A stretch of DNA of 64,000 nt from an uncultured Chloroflexia bacterium (lineage in GTDB: Bacteria > Chloroflexota > Limnocylindria > Limnocylindrales > CSP1-4), in NCBI GenBank assembly GCA_963697275.1, contig CAVONF010000003.1, forward strand, positions 607 to 64,606, written 5' to 3'. Every line of letters begins with the position of its first letter. Within the stretch, counting starts at the first letter, position 1. This document shows, piece by piece, positions 2,934-38,285 of the stretch. Below the pieces are notes generated by a model. It saw only the letters and a list, made by a program, of their open reading frames with translations, searched no databases and was not told the origin of the DNA. Made by a program: the position numbers and the translations under genes.

Positions 2934-3227
2934 TCATCGCTGCGCGCGCTCACGCCTCCGCCGCGAGGCACAGCGCGGCCCGCACAACACCGCCTGCCGG
3001 CGCCGACCGTCGAGCGACATGCCGCAGCAAGCGCAGATGCGTCCGGCAGGCCGGCGGCCGATGGCGGTGCGGTGGACCTCGCGCCAGACCAGGGGGCGGC
3101 CACGGCCGGGTCGGGCCTCGAGGTCGACGCCGCACTGGCGGCAGTGGCGGGGTGGGATGACCAGCGCCCGCAGCTGCGCCTTGCCCATCCGCGCCAGGGC
3201 CTCGAGGTCATCCATCACGGCCATCAT
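2934..3227 (-). CDS. small zinc-ribbon protein (CxxC...CxxC...C..RC), paralog of 12398..12691
   Basis: ORF 2934..3227, MMAVMDDLEALARMGKAQLRALVIPPRHCRQCG...CACCG...RRRQAVLCGPRCASRRRR. A second copy lies 9.5 kb away. Confidence 0.65.
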   Translation of the reverse strand: MMAVMDDLEALARMGKAQLRALVIPPRHCRQCGVDLEARPGRGRPLVWREVHRTAIGRRPAGRICACCGMSLDGRRRQAVLCGPRCASRRRRERAQR

Positions 3228-3305
3228 CCCATCGGGCGACCGGGTTTCCGCATCAATACGGCGTAATCAGGCGAAACGCGGCCGCGTGCGTTACGTGCGG
3301 CGTGG
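2934..3305. repeat. segmental duplication C, copy 1 (Zn-ribbon gene + upstream block + MFS 3' remnant)
   Basis: Aligns with 12398-12775. The block 3228-3300 is almost identical. 3253..3305 keeps only TTPHVT.AA.FRLITPY*, the C-terminus of the MFS gene intact in copy 2. Confidence 0.75.
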
Positions 3306-4590: not shown

Positions 4591-4914
4591 CTATAGCCCC
4601 CACAGGTGCTGCCACGTCACGAAGGTCCCGACGAGCAGACCCGTAACGGAAAGCCCGAGCAATAGGGCGGTGTTTGTCCGGTCGCCTTTGCGCACCAGAA
4701 ACCAGAGGACAACCCCCACGACCACACCGACGAAGTAGACAAGAAGGACGCCCGCAAGGAGGAGGATCACAGCGCCTTCGACGGGTGGTGGCTTTTCGGG
4801 GTCGGGCCGCCAATCGGCAAGGACGAAGTACGGCAGGAGTCCCAGCAGCAACCCGACCGTCAGCGCCCCGACGGGCCCGAGCAGGGAACTTCGGTCCCTC
4901 ATGGCTCTCATCAT
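4591..4914 (-). CDS. small 3-TM membrane protein
   Basis: ORF 4591..4914, MMRAMRDRSSLLGPVGALTVGLLLGLLPYFVL... Its upstream region is conserved with that of the 5083 gene. Confidence 0.6.
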   Translation of the reverse strand: MMRAMRDRSSLLGPVGALTVGLLLGLLPYFVLADWRPDPEKPPPVEGAVILLLAGVLLVYFVGVVVGVVLWFLVRKGDRTNTALLLGLSVTGLLVGTFVTWQHLWGL

Positions 4915-5082
4915 CCGCTCGAGCCGCTGGCCGGCAAGGGACGAATGGCCCGCGACTCAAAGCGTGACGACCGAGGCACGCCCCGCGAAGACTCGTCACC
5001 CCTCAGGTCGTGTGACATCAGCAGGTACGCGGTACGCACTACCTGCGGACGCCCCCTCAAGGGAGAGCGGGGGACCTCGGGC

Positions 5083-5406
5083 TCAGAGCACGGTCCACGT
5101 CAGGATGAACCCGGCACCGAGACCTAGCACTGAGACGAGACCAAGCAACAGGCAGCCGAGGCCCGGGGAGTCCGCGGGGCCCTTGGGGGGCTTCAGGAGC
5201 CAGACCCACCAGATGACGCCGACGACCATCGGCAAGACCACCAACGAGAGGACGTGGAAGGCCCAGACGCCCAGCAGCCATTCCCCACGGTCGCGGTAGC
5301 CACCGAACTCCCAGAGGAAGTGGGGGGCGATTCCCAGCAGCACTCCAGCCGCGACCGCCGCGATGAGCGCGACCGTGAAGCTTCGGTCCCTCATGGGCCC
5401 CATCAT
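5083..5406 (-). CDS. small 3-TM membrane protein
   Basis: C-terminal part of ORF 5083..5706 starting MMGPMRDRSFTVALIAAVAAGVLLGIAPHF (ATGs at 5406/5403/5394). Confidence 0.6.
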   Translation of the reverse strand: MMGPMRDRSFTVALIAAVAAGVLLGIAPHFLWEFGGYRDRGEWLLGVWAFHVLSLVVLPMVVGVIWWVWLLKPPKGPADSPGLGCLLLGLVSVLGLGAGFILTWTVL

Positions 5407-5509
5407 CCGCTCGGGCCGCTGGCAGGCAAGGGACGAATGGCCCGCACCTCGAAGGGTGACGACCGAGGCCCACCCCCCCCGAGATGCAGGCCCATTCCCG
5501 CACCCGGAC

Positions 5510-5632
5510 TTCGTGACGTGACCTCCGCCTCTTGCACCCCGTGCTACCGAAGCGGCACCCTCGCAGCAGAGCGGGAGGCCACGACGCACGGCCCACACCC
5601 TGGCCGCCGGGACCGTGTCAAGCCACTGGCGG
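5510..5632 (+). promoter_or_regulatory. conserved leader element L2 (variant, cargo displaced by IS)
   Basis: TTCGTGAC-GTGAC-CTCCGCCTCTTGCACCCCGTGCTACCG, then GAAGCGGCACCCTCGCAGC replaces the GTGGCGTCATAC box. The 3' half is intact through GCCACTGGCGG. Confidence 0.7.
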
Positions 5633-5664
5633 CCTGCCCGAGAGGTGACTCGGACCGAGACGTA

Positions 5665-7097
5665 CCGACGGGCGGAAGCATCCAATTCCCTGTGCTGCAT
5701 GGTCACGCGATGACGGCCAGGGACGCCGTGACATCGCGGATCGCCCGGCCCAGTAGCGGCCCCAGGTGCCGTTCAGACGGAGCAGCCGCAGCTGCAGCAG
5801 ATGGCTGACGCCACGCCGGAACCAGCTCATGCCACGGATCTTGAAGCGACGGGCGATGACGATGTCGACGCCCTTCTCCATGGGCCCTGAGCGGCCAGCG
5901 GCACGATGCGGTAGTTGGCGATGGCCCGGGCGTTGTTCGCGACGTAGCCGATGACGGCCCGACAGCGGGAGGCCTGCTCGGGGTCGTCCGTCTCGAGCGC
6001 GCGGGCATGGGCGCGCAGGATCGCCAGGAGCGCCTCGACATCGCCGGGGGCTGCCGCCCCCGGCGCCGCCGCGAGGACGTCACCGTGCTCGCGGCCGGTG
6101 CCGAAGCGGAGCTGCTCGACGAGGTGGTACCAGTCGAGCAGCTCGATCGCGTCGGGGAAGCTGCGCTCGCGGATCCATCGATCGCGGCGGCCCCGTCCGA
6201 CACGAAGAGGATGCGCCGGGCCTCGTAGACGCCCAGCTCCGCGCAGAGGGCGGTGAAGCGCTCCGCGAACGTCGTCCACGACCCGGTGTCGCCGACGAGA
6301 TGCCGGTCGAGGAGCCGGCGGCGGTCCTTGCCGATCCGCTCGACGCCGCTGAAGACGAGCCCGAGCTTGACCTCCAGGTGGGTGCCGGAGCCGCGGTCGT
6401 TGACCATCGTGCCGTCGGCCTGGACCCAGACGTCCTCCTCGGATGGGGCGAGCGTCGGGCCGCGCTCCGGGTGGGTCCCGAAGACCGCCTCCTGGCGGGT
6501 CGCGATCTCGGCCTCGAGGTGGGTCCCTTCCTCCTTCACCCAGGGGTGGAGCTGGCCGTGGCTGACCGGCAGGTCGCGCAGCTCATCGAGCGCTCGAGCC
6601 GTCCTGGCATAGGAGAGCTCGGTCACGAGCCAGAGGGCCCGCTCGCGGACCCCGAGGGTGTGCTGCACACGGGGCTCGAGGCCGAGCGCCGCGTCGAGGG
6701 GCATGACCTCGGCCCCACAGGCACCGCACCGATAGCGACGGCGGGAGAGCTCGACCTCGCCCGCGAGGGTGACGAGGCGACGGCGGGCCCGGCCGTTGGC
6801 CTTCAGGATGCCGCCGCAGTCGACATGCCCGCGGCCCACGACGAGCGCAGCCTCGAGCGCGCTGACGATCTCCCGCCACAGTCGCTCCCCGACCTCCGCC
6901 AGGCCAGCGCTGACGGCACGCTCGAGCGAGCCGATGTCGGCACCCTCCGGATGCAGCTCGATGGTGAGCGTGACCGGGACGGCGATAGACTGCATGGCGA
7001 GCCCCTTCGGTGCTGGTTCCAACACCTCCAGCGTACGGATGGGGCTCACCCTGTTCCCGCCGCGCCAGCACAGACGTTTGGATGCAAACCCGACGGG
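5665..7097 (-). mobile_element. insertion sequence, ISLre2 (UPF0236)-like
   Basis: Imperfect terminal inverted repeats: 5665-5697 CCGACGGGCGGAAGCATCCAATTCCCTGTGCTG versus the reverse complement of 7066-7097 CAGCACAGACGTTTGGATGCAAACCCGACGGG. They enclose a single transposase gene. Ends are uncertain by about 20 nt. Confidence 0.7.
5703..6995 (-). CDS. ISLre2-family transposase, at least 2 frame changes
   Basis: MQSIAVPVTLTIEL...RRYRCGACG...DGTMV...ILFVSDGAAAI (ORF 5703..7235), then LLDWYHLVEQL (5827..6279), then IARRFKIRGMSWFRRGVSHLLQLRLLRLNGTW (5618..5881). This motif order is typical of UPF0236/ISLre2 transposases. Confidence 0.7.
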   Translation of the reverse strand: MQSIAVPVTLTIELHPEGADIGSLERAVSAGLAEVGERLWREIVSALEAALVVGRGHVDCGGILKANGRARRRLVTLAGEVELSRRRYRCGACGAEVMPLDAALGLEPRVQHTLGVRERALWLVTELSYARTARALDELRDLPVSHGQLHPWVKEEGTHLEAEIATRQEAVFGTHPERGPTLAPSEEDVWVQADGTMVNDRGSGTHLEVKLGLVFSGVERIGKDRRRLLDRHLVGDTGSWTTFAERFTALCAELGVYEARRILFVSDGAAAIDGSASAASPTRSSCSTGTTSSSSSASAPAASTVTSSRRRRGRQPPAMSRRSWRSCAPMPARSRRTTPSRPPAVGPSSATSRTTPGPSPTTASCRWPLRAHGEGRRHRHRPSLQDPWHELVPAWRQPSAAAAAAPSERHLGPLLGRAIRDVTASLAVIA

Positions 7098-7106
7098 CTG
7101 GAGCTG

Positions 7107-7551: not shown

Positions 7552-7757
7552 CGCGCCCGGGTCTCACGGTCGTGGCGGACGCGGAGCTGCTGGCCACGCC
7601 AGGGAACGGTGAGCGGGTCGGGGGCCTTCACGACGCTGGGCTAACGGTCGTGCCGCGCCGGGCCGGATGGCACTCCACGCGGTCGGGTCCGGTCCCGTAG
7701 CTTCCGCCATCGGGACACCGCACGCCTCCCGCTTTGGCGCTGCGTTCGCGCCCGAAA

Positions 7758-7782
7758 AGGCCCGTCGCACACTGACGGGCCT
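7758..7782 (-). terminator. hairpin with T-tract on minus strand
   Basis: AGGCCCGTC / GACGGGCCT 9-bp stem with a 7-nt loop. The minus strand continues TTTTCGGG. The transcript it would terminate is unclear. Confidence 0.35.
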
Positions 7783-7860
7783 CTCCTCATGCCGCTGGAC
7801 CCCGACCCTCTTGGCAACGCGTCGATGAGCCTGGTCCATCGTCGGAGACACCGCACCACC

Positions 7861-7979
7861 TTCGTGACCTCCGCCTCTTGAACGACGTGCTACCCCTGTG
7901 GCGTCATACGCAGCAGAGCGGGAGGCGATGACGCACGGCCCACACCCTGGCCGCCGGGACCGTGCCGAGCCACTGGCGG
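7861..7979 (+). promoter_or_regulatory. conserved leader element L3
   Basis: Full consensus with the TTGAACG variant of the -35-like box. It ends 29 nt before ATG 8009. Confidence 0.75.
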
Positions 7980-8008
7980 CGGCCCGTCGAGCGAGAAGGG
8001 TGCAGGCG

Positions 8009-8452
8009 ATGCAGCACAGCCGTCAGGAGATCCGGGTGGAGGCACCCGTCGAGCACGTCTGGGCGCTCTTCGCGGACACGTCGCGCTGGGAAGAGTGGAT
8101 GCCCGCGAGGTTCTCGGAGTTCAGTGGCCCGGTGGACGAGGTCGGGACGACGTTCGTCCAGAGCGTGCGGGTCATGGGCTTCGAGCAGAAGATGACGGGC
8201 ACGGTCGTCGAGTTCGAGCCGCTGCGGCTCTACCACGATCACGTCGAACCCGGGCCGTTCGACAGCACCTTCCGCTGTGAGCCCGATGGTGAGGCGACCC
8301 GCTTCGTCTTCGAAGCCGACTACGAGCTCCCGGCCCAGCTGCCGGGCGTCGTCAAGCGTGTCGTGAACTCGGGCTGGATCGCGCGGAACCACCGCAAGAT
8401 GCTGGCCGACTTCAAGGCCCTCGCCGAGGCGAAGGTCCCGACACACGCCTGA
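8009..8452 (+). CDS. SRPBCC (START/polyketide-cyclase-like) domain protein
   Basis: Intact frame within ORF 7898..8452, starting MQHSRQEIRVEAPVEHVWALFADTSRWEEWMP, which is typical of an SRPBCC N-terminus. Confidence 0.75.
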   Translation: MQHSRQEIRVEAPVEHVWALFADTSRWEEWMPARFSEFSGPVDEVGTTFVQSVRVMGFEQKMTGTVVEFEPLRLYHDHVEPGPFDSTFRCEPDGEATRFVFEADYELPAQLPGVVKRVVNSGWIARNHRKMLADFKALAEAKVPTHA

Positions 8453-8466
8453 CCGCACCTCACTGA

Positions 8467-8490
8467 GGCCCGTCCCAGGAGCGGCGGGCC
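8467..8490 (+). terminator. conserved cassette terminator hairpin
   Basis: GGCCCGTC / GGCGGGCC stem followed by TCTTCCTGG, 15 nt after the stop. Confidence 0.55.
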
Positions 8491-8510
8491 TCTTCCTGGT
8501 CGCCCCGCAA

Positions 8511-8640
8511 CTCATGACCTCCGCCTCTTGCATCCGGAGCTACGTCCGTGGCGTCATACCCGACAGAGCGGGAGGCCATGACGCACGGCCCACGCCCTGG
8601 CCGCCGGGACCGTGCCGAGCCACTGGCGGGACCGGCCCGC
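8511..8640 (+). promoter_or_regulatory. conserved leader element L4
   Basis: CTCATGACCTCCGCCTCTTGCATCC...GTGGCGTCATAC...full 3' half. It ends 22 nt before ATG 8663. Confidence 0.75.
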
Positions 8641-8662
8641 GCATCGGGGAGGGGGTCTCAGC

Positions 8663-9408
8663 ATGCGTCAGCTCGTCTCCACAGCCCTCGTGGCCTGCAT
8701 CGTCGGGGCCCTTGCGGGGGCCAGCTTCGGAGCCATGGCCCAGGCCCCGGCCGAGCCACCGGTCACGACCACGGCGCTCAACGCGGATACGGTGGACCGC
8801 TTGAGCGCCGTCAAGGCCACGAGCAAGAAGGCCAGGCGCAAGAACAAGCTCGTGGCCACCGACTCGAAGGGCTTCCTGCCAGCCAACATCGTGAAGGCCA
8901 AGTGGGGCCTCATCGGCGGCAAGCCCGCCTTCCTGGCCGATGACCAGATCGCGTGGAACGAGGTCCAGGGCATCCCGGCGAGCCTCGCCGACGGTCAGAT
9001 CGGCTGGGCGAGGTGGCTGGCATCCCCGCGAGTCTCGCCGACGGGGTGGACGATGCCGGGGTGACGGGCCTCAAGGTCATCCGGGCGTACGGACCGGGCA
9101 CCACGATCTACGCCAATGCCACCGGCACGGCGTACGGCCGTGCCACCGTGACGTGCCCAGCGGGGTCCAAGGTCACAGGCGGCGGCTTCTTCGCGTCGAA
9201 CGCCCTCGACTTCCACCTGGGCACCTCCCTGCCGAGTGACACGACCACCTGGTACGTAGATGGCTACAACACCGAGCCCAATGGGGCTGGAGGCACCTCG
9301 GTCACCATCCAGGCCCTGGCCATCTGCATGAGCGTCGAGCCTGCGGGTGCCTTCACCTCGGCCAAGAAGGGCCCGCTGCCTGCCCGCGTGAAGCGGGCCC
9401 AGAAGTAG
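8663..9408 (+). CDS. secreted protein with tail-fibre-like W..(V/I).G(K/I)PA.LAD repeats, frameshift near 9005
   Basis: MRQLVSTALVACIVGALAGASFGAMAQAPA signal (ORF 8612..9064) joins ORF 8953..9408. It has three tandem repeats KWGLIGGKPAFLADD / WNEVQGIPASLADG / W(G)EVAGIPASLADG. Confidence 0.65.
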
Positions 9409-9489
9409 GGGTGACGGCTGGCGTGGCCATCGTGTGCTCCATCCCGCGAGGACTGTGCCACATCCCGTGTCGGACATGGCGCGAGGCAG

Positions 9490-9620
9490 GTCGTGACCTC
9501 CGCCTCTTGCACCCCGTGCTACCGATGTGGCGTCATACGCAGCAGAGCGGGAGGCCATGACGCACGGCCCACACCCTGGCCGCCGGGACCGTGTCGAGCC
9601 ACTGGCGGGACCGGCCCGCG
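9490..9620 (+). promoter_or_regulatory. conserved leader element L5
   Basis: Closest to the consensus. It ends 22 nt before ATG 9643. Confidence 0.75.
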
Positions 9621-9642
9621 TCGTGTGTCGGGGGGCAGCCTG

Positions 9643-10606
9643 ATGCGAAGGGTCGTACTGGGCGCGGCCGCGGTCGCGACCGGCACCGTGGTCTGGCTAC
9701 GCTCCGCAGGACGCCTCCGAGCGATGCCGAAGGCGGCCGCCGGTGTCTTCCCGAACGGCGTGCCATACACCCGGTGGGGCACGGCCGGCAAGAACCTCCT
9801 GTGGATTCGTGGGAGGTCCCGGCGAGTCAGCCCCGCGGGGACTGAGCGTGGTGCTGGCCAGGTTCTGGCTCCGACCGTACCTCGACAGCGGCTACACCGT
9901 CTGGATGGTGTCCCGGAAGCAGCACATGCCCATGGGCTACACCATCGCCGACATGGCCGAGGACTACGCGCAGCTGATCGCCGACCGCTTCGACGGTCGG
10001 ATCGACCTCGTGCTCGGAGAGTCCTACGGCGGCATGATCGGCTTCTGGCTGGCCGCCCGCCATCCGGAGTGCTTCGCTCACATCGCCATCGTCGCCGCCG
10101 GTGCCTACGTGCCCGATGAGCGCGCCCGGACGATCGACCTCGAGTTCGCCCGCTTGCTCGCGGGCCGGACCGGCGAGGCCGGGGCCCTACTGGTCCGGTT
10201 CCTCTACCCCGACATGCGCGTCCCGGGTGCGGCCCGGGTCGTCGGAGCGGTCCTGGGGCACCTCATGTTCGCGGAGACCCACCCCTACTACCGGCACGAC
10301 GTGCTGATCGAGGCCCAAGCCGACCTGGCGTTCGACGCCCGCGAGGTCCTGCCCGAGATCCGGGTACCCGTCCTGCTCATCGGCGGCGACCGCGACCAGT
10401 ACACACCGAAGTCGGTCTACGAGGAAACGGCGCGGCTCATCCCCGACTGCACGCTCGTGCTCTACGAGGGCAAGGACCACCTCGGAGCGATCAATGACAG
10501 GCGTCTGCACCGGGACGTGCTCGACTTCGTGGCGCGGCAGCCGAGGACCCGCTCGGCTGAACGGCCTCGCGGTCCGGTCCCTGAGCCGGTCGTCGGCAGG
10601 GCCTGA
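9643..10606 (+). CDS. alpha/beta hydrolase, N-terminal TM/signal anchor, frameshift near 9808
   Basis: [19 protein letters not shown] (frame of ORF 9493..10119) joins ORF 9743..10606, with nucleophile elbow GESYGG and the late motif GGDRDQYTP...GKDH. Confidence 0.75.
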
Positions 10607-10613
10607 CCGCTTG

Positions 10614-10745
10614 TTCGTGACCTCCGCCTCTTGCACCCGGTGCTACCGCCGTGGCCTCATACCCCACAGAGCGGGAGGCCACGACGCACGGCCCACGCCC
10701 TGGCCGCCGGGACCGTGTCGAGCCACTGGCGGACCCGGCCCGCCC
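10614..10745 (+). promoter_or_regulatory. conserved leader element L6
   Basis: Starts 8 nt after the hydrolase stop and ends 20 nt before ATG 10766. Confidence 0.75.
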
Positions 10746-10765
10746 GGGCTAGAGGGGGTGTCGTG

Positions 10766-11582
10766 ATGCGCCGAGTCGTTTCCTCGCGGGTGTGACGAGG
10801 CCGCCGTCACGGGCGTCGCGTTCGCTCACGACCGCCTCCCGAGGTCAAGGACCGGAGACATCCCTGTCGTCCGGGGACGATACGCAGTACACGTGGTACG
10901 CACCGGGCGGACCGGAGGGCTTCTGGTTCAACGGGCCCGTGGGCTGGGCCTTCGCGAGGATCCAGCCGCTCAGCCACGCGGGCGTCTACACGGTCGTGGC
11001 CGAGATGCTCGACCTGCGGCCCGAGGACGAGTTGCTGGACATCGGCTGCGGACCCGGAGCGTTCCTGGCCACGAAGGCGCGGACAGGTGCGACGGGTCGT
11101 CGGGCCTCGATGCCTCCCCGACCATGCTGCACGCGGCCGAGAAGCGCCTGACGGAGCGCATCGCCGCGGGCACGGCCCGGCTCGTGCGGACCAGCTCCAT
11201 CGAGCTGCCCTTCGGCGACGACGAGTTCACGGCGGTCACGGCCATCACCGCGCCGGCCAACCTCGCCGAGGTGCTCCGGGTGCTCCGCCCGGGCGGACGC
11301 TTCGTGTGGGTGGACGAACTCACCGCCGACCCGAAGAAGCCCTCCGCCGAGCGGACGGGCCGCTTCGGCTGGAGCGAAGCCGACTTCCGAGGCATCCTCG
11401 GGGATGCCGGCTTCATCGAGCTGTCCGTCCGCTACGAGGACGTGTCGTTCCTCGCCGACAACCGCATCGTCGCCTGCCGCAAGCCGGCCGCGACGCGACC
11501 GGAGGCAGCGGTCGGCATCGGCGAGCCAATGGTTGACGCCGAGAAGGATGCGACCCCGGCGGAGCCCATTCCCACCGGCTGA
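10766..11582 (+). CDS. class I SAM-dependent methyltransferase, several frame changes (about 10790, 11070-11110)
   Basis: Motif I LLDIGCGPGAF (ORF 10792..11151), then VVGLDASPTMLHAAEKRL...LRPGGRFVWVD (ORF 10893..11582). Confidence 0.7.
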
Positions 11583-11632
11583 CGATGGGCCCGACCAGGC
11601 AGGACGTGCTCGCTGACGAAAGGAGGCCAGGG

Positions 11633-12333
11633 ATGGAGACCGAGAACTGGTATCTCAATCACAAGTCCGAGATCATGCGGCAGGTGAGGCTCTTCGTCCG
11701 GCCCTGCAGGAAAGACCTTACCGAGGCCTACGGCAAGGCGGAGGGAGAGGCCATCGCCAAGGAGACGCTGCAGGGCCTCGAGGTCCTGCTCCCAGACCTC
11801 CCCTACATCGGCGGTGATGAGAACCGCCTCACCCAGGCCCTGTACGTGACGGCTGCCTGGCTGGCCATGTACCGCTCGCTCCGGGCGCGTGGGGCCTCGG
11901 TCGAGGAGGCCGCCCGCCTCATCTACCAGGGGACAGCGAGCTTCTTCGACAGCTTCCCGACACGCTGGCTCATGCGCTGGCAGGGCCGACGGATGCTCCG
12001 GCCGGAAGTTCCTCGAGCAGCGCAAGCACGTGGCCGCCATCAGCCAGCAACGCCGTTACCGCGGACGACTGGGTGTTCGAGTTCGTCGAGGGCGACGGGC
12101 ACGACTTCGCGTTCGGCGCGGACTACACCGAGTGCGGGGTCGTCAAGTACCTCGCCCGCGAAGGTGCCCCGGAGCTCGCTCCGTACCGGTGCTGGCTCGA
12201 CTACCCCCAGTTCGCCGCGATGCACCTGCGGCTCGACCGGACCGAGACGATCGCGCAGGGCGGGCAGCGCTGCGACTTCCGGGTCAGTCGGCGGAAGCCT
12301 GTGCAAGTCGAGCCGGAGTTCCTGCACGCCTGA
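11633..12333 (+). CDS. L-2-amino-thiazoline-4-carboxylate (ATC) hydrolase family protein, 2 frame changes
   Basis: AAGGAGG RBS, METENWYLNHKSEIMRQV (ORF 11585..12637) joins the 11889 frame and ORF 12073..12333 (CGVVKYLAREGAPELAPYRCWLDYPQF...TIAQGGQRCDFRV). Confidence 0.65.
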
Positions 12334-12344
12334 CGGACCCGGCG

Positions 12345-12397: not shown

Positions 12398-12691
12398 TCA
12401 CGCCCGGTGCGTCCGGCGCCTGACGCGCGAGCGGCAGCGCTCCCCGCAGACGACCGCCTGACGGCGCCGGCCGGCGAGCGACACGCCGCAGCCCGGGCAG
12501 ACGCGTCCGCCGGGACGGCGGCCGCTGGCGGTGCGGTGGGCCTCGCACCAGACCAGGGGGCGGCCAGAGCCCGATCGGGCCTCCAGCTCGACGCCGCACG
12601 CGCGGCAATGGCGAGGTGGGGTGACCAGCGCCCGTAGCTGCGCCGTGCCCAACCGCGCCACGGCCTCGAGGCCATCCATCACGACCATCAC
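12398..12691 (-). CDS. small zinc-ribbon protein, paralog of 2934..3227
   Basis: ORF 12398..12691, MMVVMDGLEAVARLGTAQLRALVTPPRHCRACG...CPGCG...RRRQAVVCGERCRSRVRRR. Confidence 0.65.
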   Translation of the reverse strand: MMVVMDGLEAVARLGTAQLRALVTPPRHCRACGVELEARSGSGRPLVWCEAHRTASGRRPGGRVCPGCGVSLAGRRRQAVVCGERCRSRVRRRTHRA

Positions 12692-12775
12692 CCCAACGGG
12701 CGACCGGGTTTCCGCATCAATACGGCGTAATCAGGCGAAACTCGGCCGCGCGCGTAACGTGCGGCGTGGTCAGAC
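12398..12775. repeat. segmental duplication C, copy 2
   Basis: See 2934-3305. Here the upstream block overlaps the intact 3' end of the MFS gene. Confidence 0.75.
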
Positions 12776-14021
12776 CCGGCAACGACCGGGGCATGCGCGC
12801 CATGATCAGGCCGGTCTTGGCGGTGGCTCCGAAGATCAGGCCCAGGCCCAGGAATGCGAGGGGAGCGATGAACCACCAGTACGTCGTCTCGGCGCTCGCG
12901 AGTGCGAACAGTGCGGTCGCGGCGGCCATCATGAGCATCGACGCGAGGATGACGCGCACATAGCCATGACGACGCGTCAGCACCGGGGCGTAGAGGCCGC
13001 CGAGGAACAGCGGCACGATGTGCGGGATGAGCGCAGCGACCGCCAGCCATTCGCCCCAGTCGCGGACGATCTGCAGGTACGACCCGAAGTAGAGCAACGG
13101 CGCATTGAGGGCGAAGGACATGAACACCCCCACGAACAGCGCCACGATGATCATCCGGCTGGGCGTGACGCCTGCTGGGAAGATGCCCCTGCCCCGCCGG
13201 CGTCGGATGACGGCGATCGCGAGCCCGATCGCTCCGAGCAGCAGGAGGCCGAGCATGGCGAGGACATCCGCTTCGCCCGGGAGCAGCACGATGAGGAAGG
13301 TCGCGATGGTCAGTGGGATGGCCGCGGTGAGTGCCTGACCCATGACGTGCCTTCGCTTCAGTTCGCTGGCCGAGCGGCGCTCCGGTACGCGTGACCAGAC
13401 GAGGTAGAAGGCGAGGCTGCCTGCCGCCAGGGGCAGGAAGTAGATCGCCCACACGCCGATGAGGTCGTGGAGCACGTCCTGGATGACCGGCGCGACGATC
13501 TGGGCCACGCCCATCGACGCCAGCCCCAGGCCGATCCCGATGTCCTGCACCGTGCGTTCGGGGAAGGCATCGGCCACGATGGCGATGCCCAGGGGCATGG
13601 CAAAGCCGCTCCAGAAGGCTCCCAGAAGCCCGGCGATGAGCAGCCCCTCGTCGCTCTGGAAGACCATCCCGAAGAGGCACGTCGCCAGCAGTCCCGCGAG
13701 ACCGGCGAGCAGCCAACGCCGATGTCCGGTGACGTCGCCGGTGGCACCGCCGAGCAGCAACGTCCCGGCGCCGAGTGCGATGCCGGCGATGACGACGAGG
13801 CCCAGCGAGCCGGGGTCCTGCTTGAGGTTCCGCTGGATGGCTTCCGCGCCGGGCGAGAAGTAGGGCGGGAAGATCGACAGCGCGAACATCGCAGCGACGC
13901 TGGCCAGCAGCACGCTGACCCGCTCCGGCTGTTCCCACAGTGCCGGGACCTCCGGCGGCACCCGTCCGCGGTAGCGGTCCGGGATGCGGCCCAACAGCCG
14001 ATCTGGCAGGCGTTCACTCAC
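12717..14021 (-). CDS. MFS transporter (434 aa, intact)
   Basis: Single uninterrupted ORF 12717..14021 with about 12 hydrophobic helices. Confidence 0.8.
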   Translation of the reverse strand: MSERLPDRLLGRIPDRYRGRVPPEVPALWEQPERVSVLLASVAAMFALSIFPPYFSPGAEAIQRNLKQDPGSLGLVVIAGIALGAGTLLLGGATGDVTGHRRWLLAGLAGLLATCLFGMVFQSDEGLLIAGLLGAFWSGFAMPLGIAIVADAFPERTVQDIGIGLGLASMGVAQIVAPVIQDVLHDLIGVWAIYFLPLAAGSLAFYLVWSRVPERRSASELKRRHVMGQALTAAIPLTIATFLIVLLPGEADVLAMLGLLLLGAIGLAIAVIRRRRGRGIFPAGVTPSRMIIVALFVGVFMSFALNAPLLYFGSYLQIVRDWGEWLAVAALIPHIVPLFLGGLYAPVLTRRHGYVRVILASMLMMAAATALFALASAETTYWWFIAPLAFLGLGLIFGATAKTGLIMARMPRSLPGLTTPHVTRAAEFRLITPY

Positions 14022-14148
14022 GCGGACGAGCCTCGGGTCATCATCCCGATGCTAGGACGTCGCCGCCATCGGATTCCGGAAGTGTGCCGCACAGGCGCTT
14101 CCGGGGGCACGATACTGTGCGCGCATCACCCGCACCGCGGAGCCCACC

Positions 14149-16549
14149 GTGAACGAGCAGGCGACGGCGTCCGAACCGAAGACAGCGTTCGAGGAGCGGC
14201 TTCAGACGGCGCCCCAGAAGCCTGGTCTGGCGCATCGCATCGCGTCTGTCTGGAAAGACGAGTACGACACGGCCATGAACTGGCCACGTGGCAAGCGGCA
14301 CCTCGTCACGCGCGGTCTGACCATCCTTATCATCAACACCATCGCGCTGCTGCTCGTGAGCGAGTTCATGGACGGCATCCACTTCTCCGGCGACGCCTGG
14401 GAGGACATCTTCGCGGCGCTGCTGGTCACGCTCGTTGCCGGCGCGTTCACGTTCCTGGTCCGTCCGTCGTCTTCGTGGCCCTGGGCATCAACAACGTCCT
14501 CGTGACCGCGGTCCTGACCATCGTCTTCATGGGCCTGACCCTGCTGGTCGGCGCGGCTCGTGCCAGGCATCGAGGTCGATGGATTCATCGTCGCCTTCAT
14601 CGCCTCGATCCTCATCGCCGCGGTCAATACCATCCTCGTGGGCATCATCGGGCTCGACGAGGACGAGTCCTTCTTCCGTCACTCGATGAAGCGCATGGCA
14701 CGGGTGGGCGGCGATGTCGACGACCGGCCAGGCCCGGGCTTCGTCATCCTCCAGATCGACGGGCTCGCTGAGCCCATCCTGCGCGACGCCCTGCGCACCG
14801 GCTACATGCCGTTCCTCAATGACTGGCTCAGCAACGGCACGCACCGCCTGGGCAAGTACGAGGCGCTGGCACCGTCGATGACCAGCGCCGGCCAGGTGGG
14901 CATCCTCCACGGCGTCCAGCCGGGCATCCCCGCGTTCCGCTGGTGGGAGAAGGAACGCAACTACCTCATGGTCAGCAACCATCCCGACGACGCCTTCGAG
15001 ATCGAGCGCCGGGCATCGAACGAGCGGGACCTGCTGCGTGACGGGGGCGCCAGCATCAGCAACCTCGTGTCGGGTGGAGCCACGCGTGCCATCGCCACAA
15101 ACAGCCAGCTGGGCAAGCAGGGCCAGGGACTGCAGATGAAGTCCTTCAGCATGTTCCTGTACAACCCTTACAACCTGACTCGCGGGATCGCCCAGTTCGT
15201 GACCGCGGTCATCGTCGAGTACTTCCAGGCCCGGCGGCAGCGAGTCCGCGATGTCAAGCCGCGCATCGCCCGGGGCATGCCCTTCCCCTTCCTGAAGGCC
15301 AGCACCACAACCATCCTGCGCGACATGGTCGTCGATCTCATCATCGGCGAGATGGGCCGGGGTACGCCCGTCATCTACGCGGACTACCTGGGCTACGACG
15401 AGGTCGCCCACCACGCCGGCCCGGAGCGGCCTGAGACGATGCAGCAGCTGGACCGCGTCGATCGCATGATGCGCTCGCTCTCGCGCGCCGCCGAGGATGC
15501 GCCTCGCGACTACCATTTCATCCTCGTCTCGGACCACGGCCAGACCCAGGGCGCGCCCTTCGAGGACCGCTACGGTATCGGCCTCGAGGAGCTGGTGCGC
15601 TCGCTCATGGAGGGTGACGTCAGCTCGCTCGACGCCTCGAACGATGTCGAGGGCTGGGGGCCCATCAACACCTTCCTGACCGAGGCCAGCCGAGCGCCAG
15701 GGGCCTCAGGCCGCATCGTCAGCCGCGCACTGCGCAGCGACACCGAGGACGGCGTCGTCCACCTCAACGACGAGGCCGAGGTCAAGGGGGCGACGCGGCG
15801 AGGACGAGATTCCCGACCTGATCGTCGCCGCCTCGGGCAACCTCGCCAACATCTACTTCACCGAGATCCGCGAGCGCGTCAGCCTCGAGGGCATCGCCAG
15901 GATGCACCCCGAGCTCATGCCCGGGCTCATCCGCCACGAGGGCATCGGCTTCATCATGGTGCGCTCCGAGGAGCACGGGCCCCTGGTCATCAGCCGCGAC
16001 GGGGTGCGCAACCTCGAGACCGACGAGGTCGAGGGCGAGGACCCGCTGCGCTGGTACAGCGAGCACACCGCCGGCAACCTGCGCGAGCTCGACTCGTACC
16101 AGCACATCGGCGACATCTTCATCATCAGCATGTACGACCCTTCGACCGAGGAGGTCGCGCCCTTCGAGCACCAGGTCGGCTCACACGGCGGCCTCGGCGG
16201 CCTGCAGACGAAGGCCTTCGTGATGTATCCCGCCGCCTTCGCCACCCAGGACAAGACGGTCGACCTCGTCGGCGCGCAGGAGGTCAACCGCAAGATCCAC
16301 GAGTGGATGGACCGGGCCAAGGAGCTCTACACGACCGGCGCGGCGCCGGAGGAGGTCGCCGTCGAGGAGGAGCACGAGCTGCCCTCGGTGCTCAGGACCA
16401 ACGAGCGCGACATGCCGAAGAAGGCGTCCCAGCAAGCGCGTCGGAGCAGCCAGGAAGGGCCGATCCGCCGACAAGGGCGCAGCCGCAGCGGGTGCGTCGG
16501 AGGACCGATGACGGACGGATCCCGAGCCCACCCGGGCAGACTCGGATGA
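14149..16549 (+). CDS. phage-holin-family-4 (DUF360-like) membrane domain fused to alkaline-phosphatase/nucleotide-pyrophosphatase family domain; at least 3 frame changes
   Basis: ORF 14149..14505 (LTILIINTIALLLVSEFMDGIHF), the 13467 frame (VFVALGINNVLVTAVLTIVFMGL), ORF 14560.. (VPGIEVDGFIVAFIASILIAAVN, ILQIDGL, YDEVAHHAG, LVSDHGQTQG), and ORF 15902..16549 (FEHQVGSHGGLGG). Confidence 0.7.
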
Positions 16550-16604
16550 GCCGGCCACGGGCGCAGCGACCCAAGAGGCTGCCGACCGGTCGGCCCGCAA
16601 GCGG

Positions 16605-26301: not shown

Positions 26302-26598
26302 TTGGTGAGCCAGCGACGCCGCTATCCGGACGACTGGGTGTACGAGGTCGTCGAAGGTGACGGGCACGACTTCGACTTCGGCGTGGACTACACCGAGTGC
26401 GGGATCGTCAAGTACCTCGCCCGCGAAGGTGCCCCGGAGCTCGCGCCGTACCTGTGCTGGCTCGACTATCCCCAGTTCGCCGCGATGGGCCTGCGGCTCG
26501 ACCGGACCGAGACGCTCGCCCAGGGGGGCCAGCGCTGCGACTTCCGGCTCAGTCGCGGGCAGCCCGTGCAGGTCGAGCCGGAGTTCCTGCACGTCTGA
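26302..26598 (+). pseudogene. C-terminal fragment of a second ATC-hydrolase-family gene
   Basis: ORF 26302..26598 aligns with residues from ...QQRRYPDDWV to the stop of the 11633..12333 gene. The N-terminal two thirds are absent. Confidence 0.7.
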
Positions 26599-26711
26599 CG
26601 GACGTTTCCGCGAAACTCGGCTGCGCGCGCAAGCGGCCACGGGGTCCCCGGGCGCCGATATCGTTCATTCGTGGGTACCCCCGGGGGTCAGCCCGGATCG
26701 CCCCGCTGCGC

Positions 26712-28991: not shown

Positions 28992-29075
28992 CATGGTGAG
29001 CGGGAGGCGTCGACGCACGGTCCACACCCTGGCCGCCGGGACCGTGACGAGCCACGGGCGGACCCGACCCGCGCA
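28992..29075 (+). promoter_or_regulatory. conserved leader element L8, 5'-truncated
   Basis: Homology starts at CAT-GGTGAGCGGGAGGC. The whole TTCGTGACC...GTGGCGT part is replaced by the HNH remnant. The 3' half is intact, ending 17 nt before ATG 29093. Confidence 0.7.
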
Positions 29076-29092
29076 GGCGAGGGGGGCGAACC

Positions 29093-29895
29093 ATGCGCAG
29101 GCTGTGGGCCGTGGGAGCGGCCATCATGCTGTGCCTCGCGCTTCGGTCGCCGGTCGTCGGGCAGGAGGCTGCAACGAGTTGAAGTGCCGACCTGCCGGTG
29201 GCAGACGTGCATCCCGAGGTCCTGGTGGACCTGGAATGGGTCGCCGCGCACCTTGACGACCCGACCGTGCGGATCGTGGACGCTCGAATCAGCTGGCCGG
29301 CCTACTCGATGGGCCACATCGCCGGTGCTGTCTCCATCGACATCTTCGACGAGCTCTGTTGCCCCTCCCACATCATGGATGCCGAGCCGTTCGCGAAATC
29401 GATGGGCGAGAAGGGCATCGGAGATGACACGACCGTGATCGTGTACGACACCGAAGGCGGGACGTGGGTCGCCCGGCTGTGGTGGGCATTGCGGTACTAC
29501 GGCCACGAGGAGGCCAAGCTCCTCGACGGCGGCCTCCGTGCCTGGGAGGCCGGCGGTCTGCCGCTCGAGACGGAGGCGCCGGTCATCGAGCCGGCGATCT
29601 TCACGGCCCAGATCCAGCCCCAGTGGTACGCCACGATGGACGACGTAAGGGCCGCCATCGACGATTCCGACATCAGCATCGTGGATGCCCTGCCCGCCGA
29701 TAGCCACGCCGACGAGCACATCCCCACGGCTGGAAGCTCCCGGCACGGGAACTGCTCGACTGGACGGGAGTGGTCAAGGGAGCCGAGGACCTCTCGGCCA
29801 TGCTAGTTGGCGGGGCGCTGACCCAGCGGACGAGCGACCCTTCGAACCCGGTGGAGGGCGGGTCGCAGGCATCGCTCCTGGATGCGCGTCCCTGA
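29093..29895 (+). pseudogene. rhodanese paralog, frameshifted and lacking the catalytic-Cys segment
   Basis: MRRLWAVGAAIMLCLAL signal, then a stop. ORF 29198..29806 matches domain 1 of the 1055 gene. Domain 2 jumps from ...LSAML to TSDPSNPVE, so no CGGG loop is present. Confidence 0.7.
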
Positions 29896-30666: not shown

Positions 30667-30796
30667 TTCGTGACCTCCGCCTCTTGAACCATCTGCTAGC
30701 CCTGTGGCGTCATACCCGGTGAGCGGGAGGCGATGAGGCACGGCCCATGCCCTGGCCGCCGGGACCGTGCCGAGCCACTGGCGGACCCGGCCCGCG
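30667..30796 (+). promoter_or_regulatory. conserved leader element L7
   Basis: Full consensus with the TTGAACC variant. It ends 19 nt before ATG 30816. Confidence 0.75.
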
Positions 30797-30815
30797 TCTA
30801 GGGGGGAGCTGAACC

Positions 30816-31978
30816 ATGCGCAGGATGTGGACCGCAGGCGCGGCCATCGTGGTGTGCCTGGCTCTCGGTGGAGCGCCCATGTCGGCTGCAGAGCTGCCCG
30901 AGAGCACCGGCATGCCCGGCAGTATCTGGCAACCTGAGACCGGCACCTCCACCTTCGTCATCGTCCATCCTGACGGGACGATGGTCGTCCAGCACGCCTT
31001 CTGGGGCATCGGGCTCGGGATACTGGGAACCGACCGGCGATGGCTCGCTGTCGAGTCGCGTCGACTTCACCTCCGGGTACGAGGGTGAACGAGGGACGCG
31101 GACCAGCCGATCCGACTGGCTCGTCGACGAAGCGGCCGAGACCGCGACACTGACGACCGATGAGACGTTCACCGGCCCCGACGGCGTCCCGCAGCCGCTC
31201 GAGACCAGTACCGAGACCCTCAGGCGGCTACACATGGCCCCGATGCCGGAGAATGCGGTCGCGCCCACCCCGCCCGATCCGGGCTGGCAGGCGGTCATCG
31301 GTCCAGCACGCTACGACCGCAGCGAGGCCGGGGTCATGGTCGAACCGTACAGCCCGCCCAACTACACCCTCGAACACGCCGACGGCACCGCGTTGTTCCT
31401 CAACCCCTACGTCAGTGATGGGGTCGGTCTCTGGGCCCCGGTCGGGGAGCGTGCCTACGTGGCGACGGCGTGGTTCCCGCGATGGCGGGGTGCCAACAGC
31501 CCGCTGGTATCGCAGGCCCTGGCCAATGAGGACACAGGCAGCAAGTCCCGTCGCTACGGGACATCGAACGGCTTCGAGGGCACGTCGTATGAGATGCCGA
31601 TGCGCTTCGAGCCGCTCGAGGGGGACCTCGCCGCCCCCGACCCGGGCCTGTGGCCCACGATCGGCAGCGTCTGGCAGGAGCCCTACGCCGAGGGCGACGG
31701 CCTGATCGATCCGCGTTGCCTACCTGGCGGACGGCACCATCGTGACCACCCATCCCAAGTACGGCATCGGTGTCGGTGAGTGGCTGCCGATCGATGAGGA
31801 CACGATCGCCAGCAACATCCTCTACAAGGGCGGGGACTGGTCCCTGAAGGCCGAGTCCACCGTCAGTGAGGATGGGGAGAGCCTCAGCACCCGGTGGGAA
31901 GCTGATGCCAACCTGGGCAATCCGGCCGAGGACGCAGCGGGGTCGTCGACCGCCAGCCGGATGCACCTCGAGCCATAG
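30816..31978 (+). CDS. secreted multi-repeat (lipocalin-like G-x-W...DGT...G-x-W-x-P-x-G) protein, at least 2 frame changes
   Basis: ORF 30816..31088 (MRRMWTAGAAIVVCLALGGAPMSAA), ORF 30868..31779 and ORF 31742..31978 join into about 387 aa. Confidence 0.65.
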
Positions 31979-37951: not shown

Positions 37952-38107
37952 TTCGTGACGTCGGCGGACGCCCGTGGCGCCACGCGATGGCCGGAGCGTG
38001 GCGAAGGTGACCCGCGACTCTTGTGCCAACCGCTACCCCCGTGGCGTCATAGGCACCAGAGCGGGAGGCGACGACGCGCGGCCCACGACCTGGCCGCCTG
38101 GTCGTAC
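37952..38107 (+). repeat. conserved leader element L9, degenerate with 47-nt insertion
   Basis: TTCGTGAC-[47 nt]-GTGACCCGCGACTCTTGTGCC...CGTGGCGTCATAGGCACCAGAGCGGGAGGCGACGACGCGCGGCCCACGACCTGGCCGCC. The 3' part has diverged and no GCCACTGGCGG is present. Confidence 0.6.
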
Positions 38108-38177
38108 TCAGGCGTCCCCAGCGGCTCGCTCGGCTGGGTCAGCAGCCGCTGGACGGATGCCGCGCCCCCACGCTCCG

Positions 38178-38285
38178 ATCTACCCGCTCATGGCCGAGGC
38201 CCTCGACCTGCGCCCGGAGGATGAGCTCCTCTAGGTCGCCTGTGGCTCGGCTGTCTTCCTGCCCCAGCACGCCGCCCAGGCGGGA
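38178..38285 (+). pseudogene. fragment of a methyltransferase paralog (motif I region only)
   Basis: YPLMAEALDLRPEDELL*VACGSAVF, versus VAEMLDLRPEDELLDIGCGPGAF of the 10766 gene. Confidence 0.6.

Follow-up and report, generated by a model that had tools for sequence, protein, structure and literature searches.

We analysed a 64,000-nucleotide stretch of DNA from an uncultured Chloroflexia bacterium (assembly GCA_963697275.1, contig CAVONF010000003.1), hereafter the window, and in particular an array at 7862-11582 in which four units, L3 to L6, stand head to tail, each opened by a copy of one repeated leader. An original prediction, made from the sequence alone, had likened this array to a gene-cassette array, possibly a non-canonical integron. 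We estimate a probability of roughly 85% that the array is a series of expression units from one regulon, each under riboswitch control, and not a set of mobile cassettes. The repeat is a known riboswitch aptamer, it occupies a fixed position before each gene, the pairing of aptamer and gene is conserved in other genomes, and the hallmarks of integrons are absent.

Each repeated leader contains a catalogued riboswitch aptamer

The direct-repeat copies of the array all lie on the + strand and start at 7862, 8512, 9491, and 10615. Their start-to-start spacings of 650, 979, and 1124 bp bear out the predicted one-strand, head-to-tail units at ~650, 980, and 1120 bp, and the L6 repeat indeed begins 8 nt past the preceding stop codon (10604-10606). 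Alignment of ten copies divided the ~170-nt shared element into three parts: a ~50-nt promoter-like block, an ~85-nt aptamer, and a ribosome-binding region. The features of the array and its flanks are listed below; the aptamers are named after variants of the cyclic di-guanosine monophosphate (c-di-GMP) class II riboswitch.

7758-7782, + strand: GC-rich hairpin (10-bp stem, z = -2.1) followed by UCUCCUC, before L3; terminator-like, with no U run
7862-7911, + strand: L3 class-B promoter-like block, TTCGTGACCTCCGCCTCTTGAAC...GCTAC...GTGGCGTCATAC
7912-7993, + strand: L3 aptamer, c-di-GMP-II-GAG variant (49.6 bits, E = 9e-7)
8009-8452, + strand: L3 cargo, SRPBCC protein (Polyketide_cyc2, E = 8e-18), intact, 147 amino acids (aa); Shine-Dalgarno sequence GAAGGG at ~7995-8000
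8465-8492, + strand: terminator-like GC hairpin past the SRPBCC gene (10-bp stem, -26.8 kcal/mol)
8512-8561, + strand: L4 class-B promoter-like block (repeat alignment)
8562-8646, + strand: L4 aptamer, c-di-GMP-II-GAG variant (60.9 bits, E = 1e-9)
8663-9408, + strand: L4 cargo, secreted protein of ~248 aa with a signal peptide; frameshift at ~9005; no family match
9491-9540, + strand: L5 class-B promoter-like block, TTGCAC (9507-9512), 18-nt spacer, CGTCAT (9531-9536)
9541-9625, + strand: L5 aptamer, c-di-GMP-II-GAG variant, the top-scoring copy of the window (67.8 bits, E = 2e-11)
9643-10606, + strand: L5 cargo, alpha/beta hydrolase (Abhydrolase_1, E = 1e-12) with an N-terminal hydrophobic segment; frameshift at ~9800
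10615-10664, + strand: L6 class-B promoter-like block, 8 nt past the L5 stop (repeat alignment)
10665-10749, + strand: L6 aptamer, c-di-GMP-II-GCG variant (49.3 bits, E = 7e-6)
10766-11582, + strand: L6 cargo, S-adenosylmethionine (SAM)-dependent methyltransferase; frame broken soon past the ATG (~10790) and again at ~11090
11624 (probable start) to ~12340, + strand: G7, leaderless gene with an AAGGAGG Shine-Dalgarno sequence and two frameshifts (sequence and homologue comparison)

The four array aptamers match the c-di-GMP-II-GAG and c-di-GMP-II-GCG models of Rfam (RF03169 and RF03170, clan CL00127) at 49-68 bits, above the curated gathering thresholds of 40 and 47.9 bits, respectively, and cover model positions 1-85/86. 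Lower-scoring matches at the same sites to other models of the clan were set aside. The leaders are copies of this catalogued aptamer plus flanking sequence, and with Rfam E-values of 7e-6 to 2e-11 they are far from chance. The window has 69.6% G+C. Nine matches in it, including the four of the array, exceed the gathering threshold, and they score higher with the variant models than with the parent c-di-GMP-II one. The five outside the array also occupy the + strand, at 956, 2138, 5565, 28994, and 30717; when positions 1-40000 were scanned with Rfam at permissive settings, no other RNA families appeared. Together with one remnant, the window holds ten aptamers in 64 kb, four of them packed into 3.7 kb. 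Additional full or partial copies of the repeat start at 2086, 5517, 30670, and 38007, and the aptamers at 956 and 28994 have an upstream block unlike that of the other copies.

When 40 aptamers from many genomes were aligned, the sequence was near-invariant, with GCGGGAGGC and GAGCCACUGGCG fixed, and RNAalifold recovered P1 and the inner helices, in which 21 base pairs form nearly without exception. Where the GAG and GCG models differ by A versus C, the window copies follow them (GGACC versus GACCC). Several of these copies depart from both models at the adjacent position, reading GGACC or GACCC against an Rfam consensus of AGACC or AGCCC, and further binding-pocket sub-variants may exist among these aptamers. 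At the pseudoknot/bulge segment (for example 9606-9616 and 10730-10740), the window copies read GGCGGGACCGG or GGCGGACCCGG, relatives often read GGCGAACCCGG, and the Rfam consensus is GGCGAGACCG and GGCGAGCCCG.

Every array aptamer heads its own Shine-Dalgarno sequence, start codon, and gene (147-320 codons). The start codons at 8009, 8663, 9643, and 10766 lie 16-18 nt past the aptamer, each preceded by a G-rich Shine-Dalgarno sequence. A tandem riboswitch, in which two or more aptamers precede one open reading frame (ORF), was ruled out by this one-to-one assignment. A miniature inverted-repeat transposable element or a repetitive extragenic palindrome was ruled out by the fixed orientation, the fixed distance to the start codon, and the lack of terminal inverted repeats. 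The two GC-rich hairpins flanking L3 both precede UCUYCUC, and the one at 8465-8492 is retained after the SRPBCC gene in the relatives L088 and L054 by alignment (L001, L008, and similar labels denote comparison loci from other genomes); the L4-L5 interval contains no notable hairpin.

As anticipated, the cargo consists of unrelated enzymes and exported proteins, namely an SRPBCC protein, a secreted protein, an alpha/beta hydrolase, and a SAM-dependent methyltransferase. The L4 protein contains the repeats W..I.GKPA.F and GIPASLADG, so that the tail-fibre-repeat label proposed for it reflects a likeness at motif level only. Neither this protein nor the small secreted cargo has a Pfam or NCBIfam match.

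Aptamer-gene pairing is conserved across Chloroflexota

An exact-pattern scan with the aptamer core returned at least 117 stretches, and nearly all of those listed are soil Chloroflexota metagenome-assembled genomes (MAGs; uncultured Chloroflexia, Candidatus Limnocylindrales, and Chloroflexota). In the listed stretches and other loci fetched, nhmmer found 214 aptamer matches in 129 loci; among the loci listed, up to six aptamers occur within a single 5.5-8 kb locus. Many MAGs carry directly aptamer-led homologues of the array cargo (SRPBCC, 29-83% identity; methyltransferase, 36-73%; alpha/beta hydrolase, ~50%), and orthologues of the L3 SRPBCC protein are 78-88% identical. An aptamer stands upstream of SRPBCC homologues in L001, L008, L088, L054, L102, and others; Rfam placed one before an 83%-identical SRPBCC orthologue in L001-L003 and several in L008. 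Methyltransferase homologues are aptamer-led in L013, L026, L070, L101, L112, and others. Since homologues of the array cargo families are led by aptamers in more than 100 loci from Chloroflexota MAGs, the pairing of aptamer and gene is old and conserved across Chloroflexota genomes, and the array is a typical slice of a conserved regulon. Exact-protein look-ups with the window SRPBCC protein gave no record, and a metagenome scan with it gave no confirmed relatives.

A Pfam census of 132 aptamer-led proteins was led by SRPBCC proteins (13), methyltransferases (9), and SnoaL proteins (5), followed by several alpha/beta hydrolases; most of the remaining proteins belong to no Pfam family. The biggest aptamer-led cluster, with 31 of 133 members, is a ~180-aa secreted family with a highly conserved MRTLRLSL...AQ signal peptide, for which no Pfam or NCBIfam model matches. 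Its near-invariant signal peptide, MRTLRLSLVGTVILALLGG..AVVAQ, is present in L008, L039, L088, L090, L093, L103, and others, and is found on unrelated esterases too. About 60% of 170 aptamer-led ORFs look secreted; their start codons lie a median of 19 nt past the aptamer, usually with a Shine-Dalgarno sequence.

A methyltransferase gene is followed by a G7 homologue in L026, as in the window. This equal order suggests that the L6 methyltransferase and G7 are probably a two-gene co-transcribed unit.

A promoter-like block at a fixed distance from the aptamer

The block upstream of each array aptamer, termed class B, is laid out over ~50 nt as TTCGTGACCTCCGCCTCTTG(C/A)AC, ~4 nt, GCTAC, ~5 nt, and GTGGCGTCATAC. 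It places TTGCAC or TTGAAC, an ~18-nt spacer, and CGTCAT at positions equivalent to -35 and -10. The distance from the block to the aptamer core is fixed at 36-39 nt in 29 of 36 matches in ~0.96 Mb scanned; an exception occurs in L007, in which the block precedes a decayed aptamer heading a G7 homologue. The promoter classes were drawn from 155 distinct leaders:

Class A (n = 39): TGGAC, ~17 nt, GAGAAT or GACAAT; the sigma70-like -10 hexamer ends 9-12 nt before GGGAGGC
Class B (n = 21): the array's own type
Class C (n = 23): ...CCGTTCGCCTCTCGCCAGA...CTACGGTGA
Other (n = 72): no common signature

Leaders of class C (L081, L125, L025, L123, L048, L106, and others) carry a small hairpin, CACCGGGCGTCCGGGGG, and then CCGTTCGCCTCTCGCCAGA...CTACGGTGA before the aptamer. 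This class appears to be specific to certain lineages, and promoter class seems to track the genome rather than the cargo family. The position of the class A hexamer would set the transcription start at the 5' edge of the aptamer. Class B seems to resemble the AAC...CGT promoters of extracytoplasmic function (ECF)-type sigma factors, and would suit an alternative or ECF-type factor better than the housekeeping one. The upstream block (ACCTCC...) was also considered as a transcribed anti-Shine-Dalgarno or anti-aptamer strand. This was rejected because the other leader classes share the Shine-Dalgarno layout and because sigma70-like -10 hexamers fill the equivalent position.

Proposed control at translation initiation

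A unit comprises a class-B block, the 85-nt aptamer, a G-rich Shine-Dalgarno sequence, and a start codon 16-20 nt past the aptamer, sometimes preceded by the GC hairpin of the gene before it. In the mechanism that we propose, transcription would start just 5' of the aptamer, judging from the sigma70-like -10 hexamers that end 9-12 nt before the core in other leaders. Control is likely to act at translation initiation, cistron by cistron, because the Shine-Dalgarno sequence lies within ~10-15 nt of the 3' strand of P1 and U-tract terminators are lacking. The P1 3' strand (CCCGC) could pair with the G-rich Shine-Dalgarno sequence, and ligand binding might free the latter, which would tentatively make the aptamer an ON switch; minimum free energy folds of the leaders are ambiguous on the ON/OFF direction. 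A cistron-wise translational switch would allow units to sit as close as 8 nt apart and yet be individually controlled.

A nucleotide second messenger akin to c-di-GMP, though perhaps not c-di-GMP itself, is the probable ligand. A second messenger fits better than a metabolite because the regulon is varied and secretion-rich and follows no single metabolic pathway. The variants were reportedly first described by Weinberg et al. in PNAS in 2017, and that work is said to have proposed a different bacterial signalling molecule as the ligand. To our knowledge, no ligand has been established for the c-di-GMP-II-GAG and c-di-GMP-II-GCG variants; in the searchable literature they are mentioned only within lists of Rfam models, and none of it establishes a ligand.

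Mobile cassettes and recombination between leaders

One rival reading is a non-canonical cassette system, in which the ~170-nt element would be a recombination site and a site-specific recombinase encoded elsewhere would capture and shuffle the units. The one-strand, head-to-tail layout with about one gene per unit and unrelated cargo is what such a system would look like; the neighbours of the SRPBCC unit differ among the window, L001, L008, and L016, and the region around the array is rearranged, lacks synteny, and includes an insertion sequence (IS). The element itself, however, is an aptamer with a promoter-like block and a Shine-Dalgarno sequence, located 5' of each ORF, and every cargo family retains its aptamer across species. 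Nor do the units look promoterless: in sequence, each has a conserved -35/-10-like block whose distance to the aptamer is constant. Two negative statements of the original prediction were upheld: neither attC core (RYYYAAC or GTTRRRY) is present in any of the four leaders, and no tyrosine recombinase is encoded in the window, where a Pfam search of 50 ORFs, covering its coding capacity, gave no Phage_integrase match. The whole window contains one attC core pair per strand versus ~3 expected in shuffles. The called neighbours in L001-L012 likewise include no tyrosine recombinase, and the sole mobility gene among the 50 scanned ORFs encodes a UPF0236/ISKra4-like transposase.

Comparison between closely related genomes also leaned against cassettes. 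Further conspecific contigs of two relatives (5 and 4 contigs, from independent samples, at 98.9-100% identity) are fully collinear across the riboswitch units, these contigs being short and drawn from the two relatives rather than from the window's own array. The gain, loss, or reordering of single units that had been envisaged did not appear, as no unit was gained or lost among them. Where rearrangement breakpoints were observed (L008 101-290, window 38007-38101, and window ~12765), they cut genes or aptamers and spare the element edges. With the repeat identified as a 5' riboswitch aptamer bearing a Shine-Dalgarno sequence, its pairing with cargo families conserved, and the arrays collinear, we regard a non-canonical cassette system as highly improbable. 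The locus at L008 101-290 comprises an aptamer and a truncated SRPBCC N-terminus (57 codons) and ends at an oppositely oriented riboswitch unit.

Unit order does vary between species. The SRPBCC unit is directly followed by a methyltransferase in L016; two units have methyltransferase cargo in L101 and two have SRPBCC cargo in L102; G7 adjoins SRPBCC in L007 and L118; and in the window, L008, and L088, the aptamer that follows the SRPBCC unit heads a different secreted protein. Such variation fits ordinary loss of synteny, and recombination between leaders is also compatible with it. One way in which this could happen is passive: functional riboswitch leaders ~1 kb apart would double as substrates of homologous (unequal) recombination with no dedicated enzyme. 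In line with this, the homology between the window and L008 spans the L3 aptamer, the SRPBCC gene, and the next aptamer, and ends at the 3' end of that aptamer, past which the cargo differs. The SRPBCC-methyltransferase order of L016, the presence of one signal peptide on unrelated mature domains, and a half-aptamer remnant at 38007 point the same way. Against it, all of these comparisons are interspecific, so that loss of synteny is expected anyway; no genome pair shows a clean single-unit indel, nor do the conspecific contigs; and leaders that share 79-87% identity in short exact stretches are a poor recombination substrate. We consider such passive turnover rather unlikely. A broader version, in which promoter-riboswitch leaders, sometimes with a signal peptide, are portable 5' modules whose recombination re-heads, deletes, or inserts genes, is likewise unlikely, and slightly more so. 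If true, portable leaders would amount to recombinase-free, cassette-like remodelling of a secreted-protein regulon under a signalling ligand.

Leader similarity reflects constraint more than copying

To call the repeats near-identical would be an overstatement, since the array leaders are 79-87% identical in pairwise comparison across ~140 nt. Class-B leaders of the window as a whole are 61-87% identical (mean 0.77), and their mean identity to leaders of other genomes is 0.66, with individual foreign copies (L072, L059, and L097) reaching 0.84-0.86. The leaders of L4, L5, and L6 are mutual best matches (0.86-0.87), and there may therefore be a slight within-genome signal among them; the nearest neighbours of the L3 and 30717 copies come from other genomes.

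These values bear on whether the leaders resemble each other because a single promoter-leader module was recently copied in this genome, by segmental duplication or gene conversion. The higher mean identity inside the window and the mutual best matches of L4-L6 would agree with such copying, as would the whole-unit paralogues at 957-1971 and 28995-29860 and a leader plus signal-peptide stretch common to 28995 and 30718 (82% over 148 nt) ahead of differing mature proteins. But an identity of 79-87% is not recent, leaders of other species are equally close, the matching positions are those invariant family-wide, and the orthologous cargo genes of distant genomes are already led by aptamers. Recent duplication is thus quite unlikely as the source of the likeness. 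The leader copies are, from their sequences, mostly old paralogues kept alike by functional constraint on aptamer and promoter, and they look like repeats because the aptamer is almost invariant across genomes. The fallback offered in the original prediction, a repeated promoter-leader module, was essentially right as to the module; the duplication was half right, as the copies are as diverged as those between species.

Possible decay of the array genes and other points against a functional regulon

Several results weigh against the reading of the array as a working riboswitch regulon. Three of the four cargo genes are frameshifted, and the array in this genome may not be fully functional. A consensus scan of 7600-11800 found no canonical sigma70 promoter and no U-tract terminator, and the putative promoters are assigned by motif position. 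Support for pairing between the P1 3' strand and the Shine-Dalgarno sequence is weak (-7.8 versus -7.1 kcal/mol, ahead of shuffles in 80 of 127 cases). Compensatory changes occur in only 3 of the 21 aptamer pairs (for example column 25/56, GC 19 and AU 11), and such high conservation leaves little covariation to support the fold. Species differ in the gene order around the units, and the array lies beyond the ~12765 synteny breakpoint, so some form of unit turnover does occur. That breakpoint was located by comparison with the nearest relatives of the window, L130 (87-91% DNA identity) and L131 (~73%), with both of which synteny stops at ~12765; for the array itself the comparison gave no close relative.

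Of the four array cargo genes, the SRPBCC gene (8009-8452) alone has an unbroken ORF. A frame plot of G+C at third codon positions placed the frame changes of L4-L6 at ~9005, 9800, 10790, and 11090, and those of L5, L6, and G7 were confirmed against intact homologues. Further frameshifts lie at ~12000 and 12060. The L5 gene is split over two frames in comparison with the aptamer-led homologues of L053 and L081, which are intact at 342 aa. The claim of exactly one ORF per unit therefore does not hold, with three genes frameshifted and L6 probably a two-gene unit.

The damage is concentrated in riboswitch-led genes (8663-12340, 29093-29806, and 30816-31978), given that neighbouring genes are intact, including an ABC1 kinase (560 aa), an LPG-synthase-like gene collinear with L130, and an alkyl sulfatase (584 aa). 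Nearby ABC transporters, like these genes of housekeeping type, are also intact. The frameshift sites lie outside long homopolymers, and the closest relatives of the window include long-read MAGs. The frameshifts represent either real decay of the regulon in this lineage or local assembly error.

Comparison with known systems

The four leaders agree with the catalogued c-di-GMP-II-GAG/GCG aptamers in scoring above the curated thresholds at full model length, in sense orientation directly before an ORF, and in host type, soil Chloroflexota MAGs, with more than 100 other instances. Several window copies differ in reading GGACC/GACCC where Rfam has AGACC/AGCCC, and the leaders differ in being tied to a specific promoter-like block at a density of four per 3.7 kb. 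Canonical c-di-GMP-I and c-di-GMP-II regulons, which place many aptamer copies per genome before surface and secreted protein genes, resemble the present one in that one aptamer class heads many unrelated genes, a large share of them for secreted or surface proteins. Among c-di-GMP-II riboswitches, aptamers in tandem and in clusters have been described (PMC9481103). Here, in contrast, each aptamer owns an ORF and no 5' untranslated region carries tandem aptamers; the variant binding pocket suggests another ligand, and the host belongs to Chloroflexota rather than Firmicutes. Chromosomal integron arrays share with this array the one-strand, head-to-tail units of about one gene (0.65-1.1 kb) with unrelated small-protein cargo, separated by a repeated element of ~100 nt. 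In this array, however, the repeat is 5' of the ORF and bears a promoter-like block and a ribosome-binding site; the leaders have no RYYYAAC/GTTRRRY cores, the 50 window ORFs include no IntI, and the pairing of repeat and gene is conserved across species.

A false lead is thereby removed, since the locus holds no new integron-like system. It is instead a new and unusually dense instance of a known, barely described variant riboswitch class, with a conserved promoter type. These variants are abundant and densely clustered in uncultured soil Chloroflexota, with a few distinct conserved promoter types, and they head a coherent set of genes for the ~180-aa secreted family, SRPBCC and SnoaL proteins, methyltransferases, and esterases. 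This gene set and well-scoring aptamers such as 9541-9625 provide material for ligand identification.

Other riboswitch units and features of the window

Outside the array, the window contains the following riboswitch units:

956-1040, + strand: aptamer (Rfam) of a rhodanese gene (1055-1990), with a sigma70-like promoter of class A (GAGAAT)
2138-2220, + strand: class-B leader and aptamer (Rfam) before a small secreted protein
5565-5643, + strand: weakest aptamer (Rfam, 41 bits), with a class-B block and then no Shine-Dalgarno sequence or start codon
28994-29078, + strand: aptamer (Rfam) before a rhodanese paralogue with an in-frame TGA at codon 30 (29180)
30717-30801, + strand: class-B leader and aptamer (Rfam) before a ~383-aa secreted protein with two frameshifts
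38007-38101, + strand: remnant (repeat alignment), a class-B block followed by no more than the aptamer's 5' half, directly fused to a methyltransferase-like fragment

The methyltransferase-like fragment within the stretch 38007-38285 shares 84% amino-acid identity with the L026 methyltransferase over 43 aa, and the remnant is, as read from its sequence, a deletion scar within the aptamer.

An IS at 5674-7089 begins ~30 nt past the weakest aptamer. Its inverted ends are imperfect and 24 bp long (GGAAGCATCCAATTCCCTGTGCTG / CAGCACAGACGTTTGGATGCAAAC), and the target duplication of 9 bp, CCGACGGGC, lies at 5665-5673 and 7090-7098; its UPF0236/ISKra4-like transposase gene is on the - strand, with the C-terminal part out of frame. 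Near it, at ~4591-4903 and 5083-5395 on the - strand, lie tandem paralogous genes for small membrane proteins (~100 aa). They share ~80 nt of conserved upstream sequence (the repeats 4822-4984 and 5314-5476 are 79% identical over 163 nt), which has no Rfam match and could be another shared leader.

The synteny breakpoint lies within a major facilitator superfamily gene at 12717-14021 (- strand), which aligns to residues 1-419 of a 554-aa L130 homologue (87%) and lacks the last 135 codons; compared with L130, the window has an extra ~2.5 kb at 14022-16602. Several paralogous pieces recur between the first 13 kb and the region at 26-31 kb, among them the whole rhodanese units at 957-1971 and 28995-29860. 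Positions 26327-26603 (duplicated fragment at 26308-26602) are 91% identical to the 3' end of G7 (12062-12338), and 2953-3252 is 85% identical to 12417-12716.

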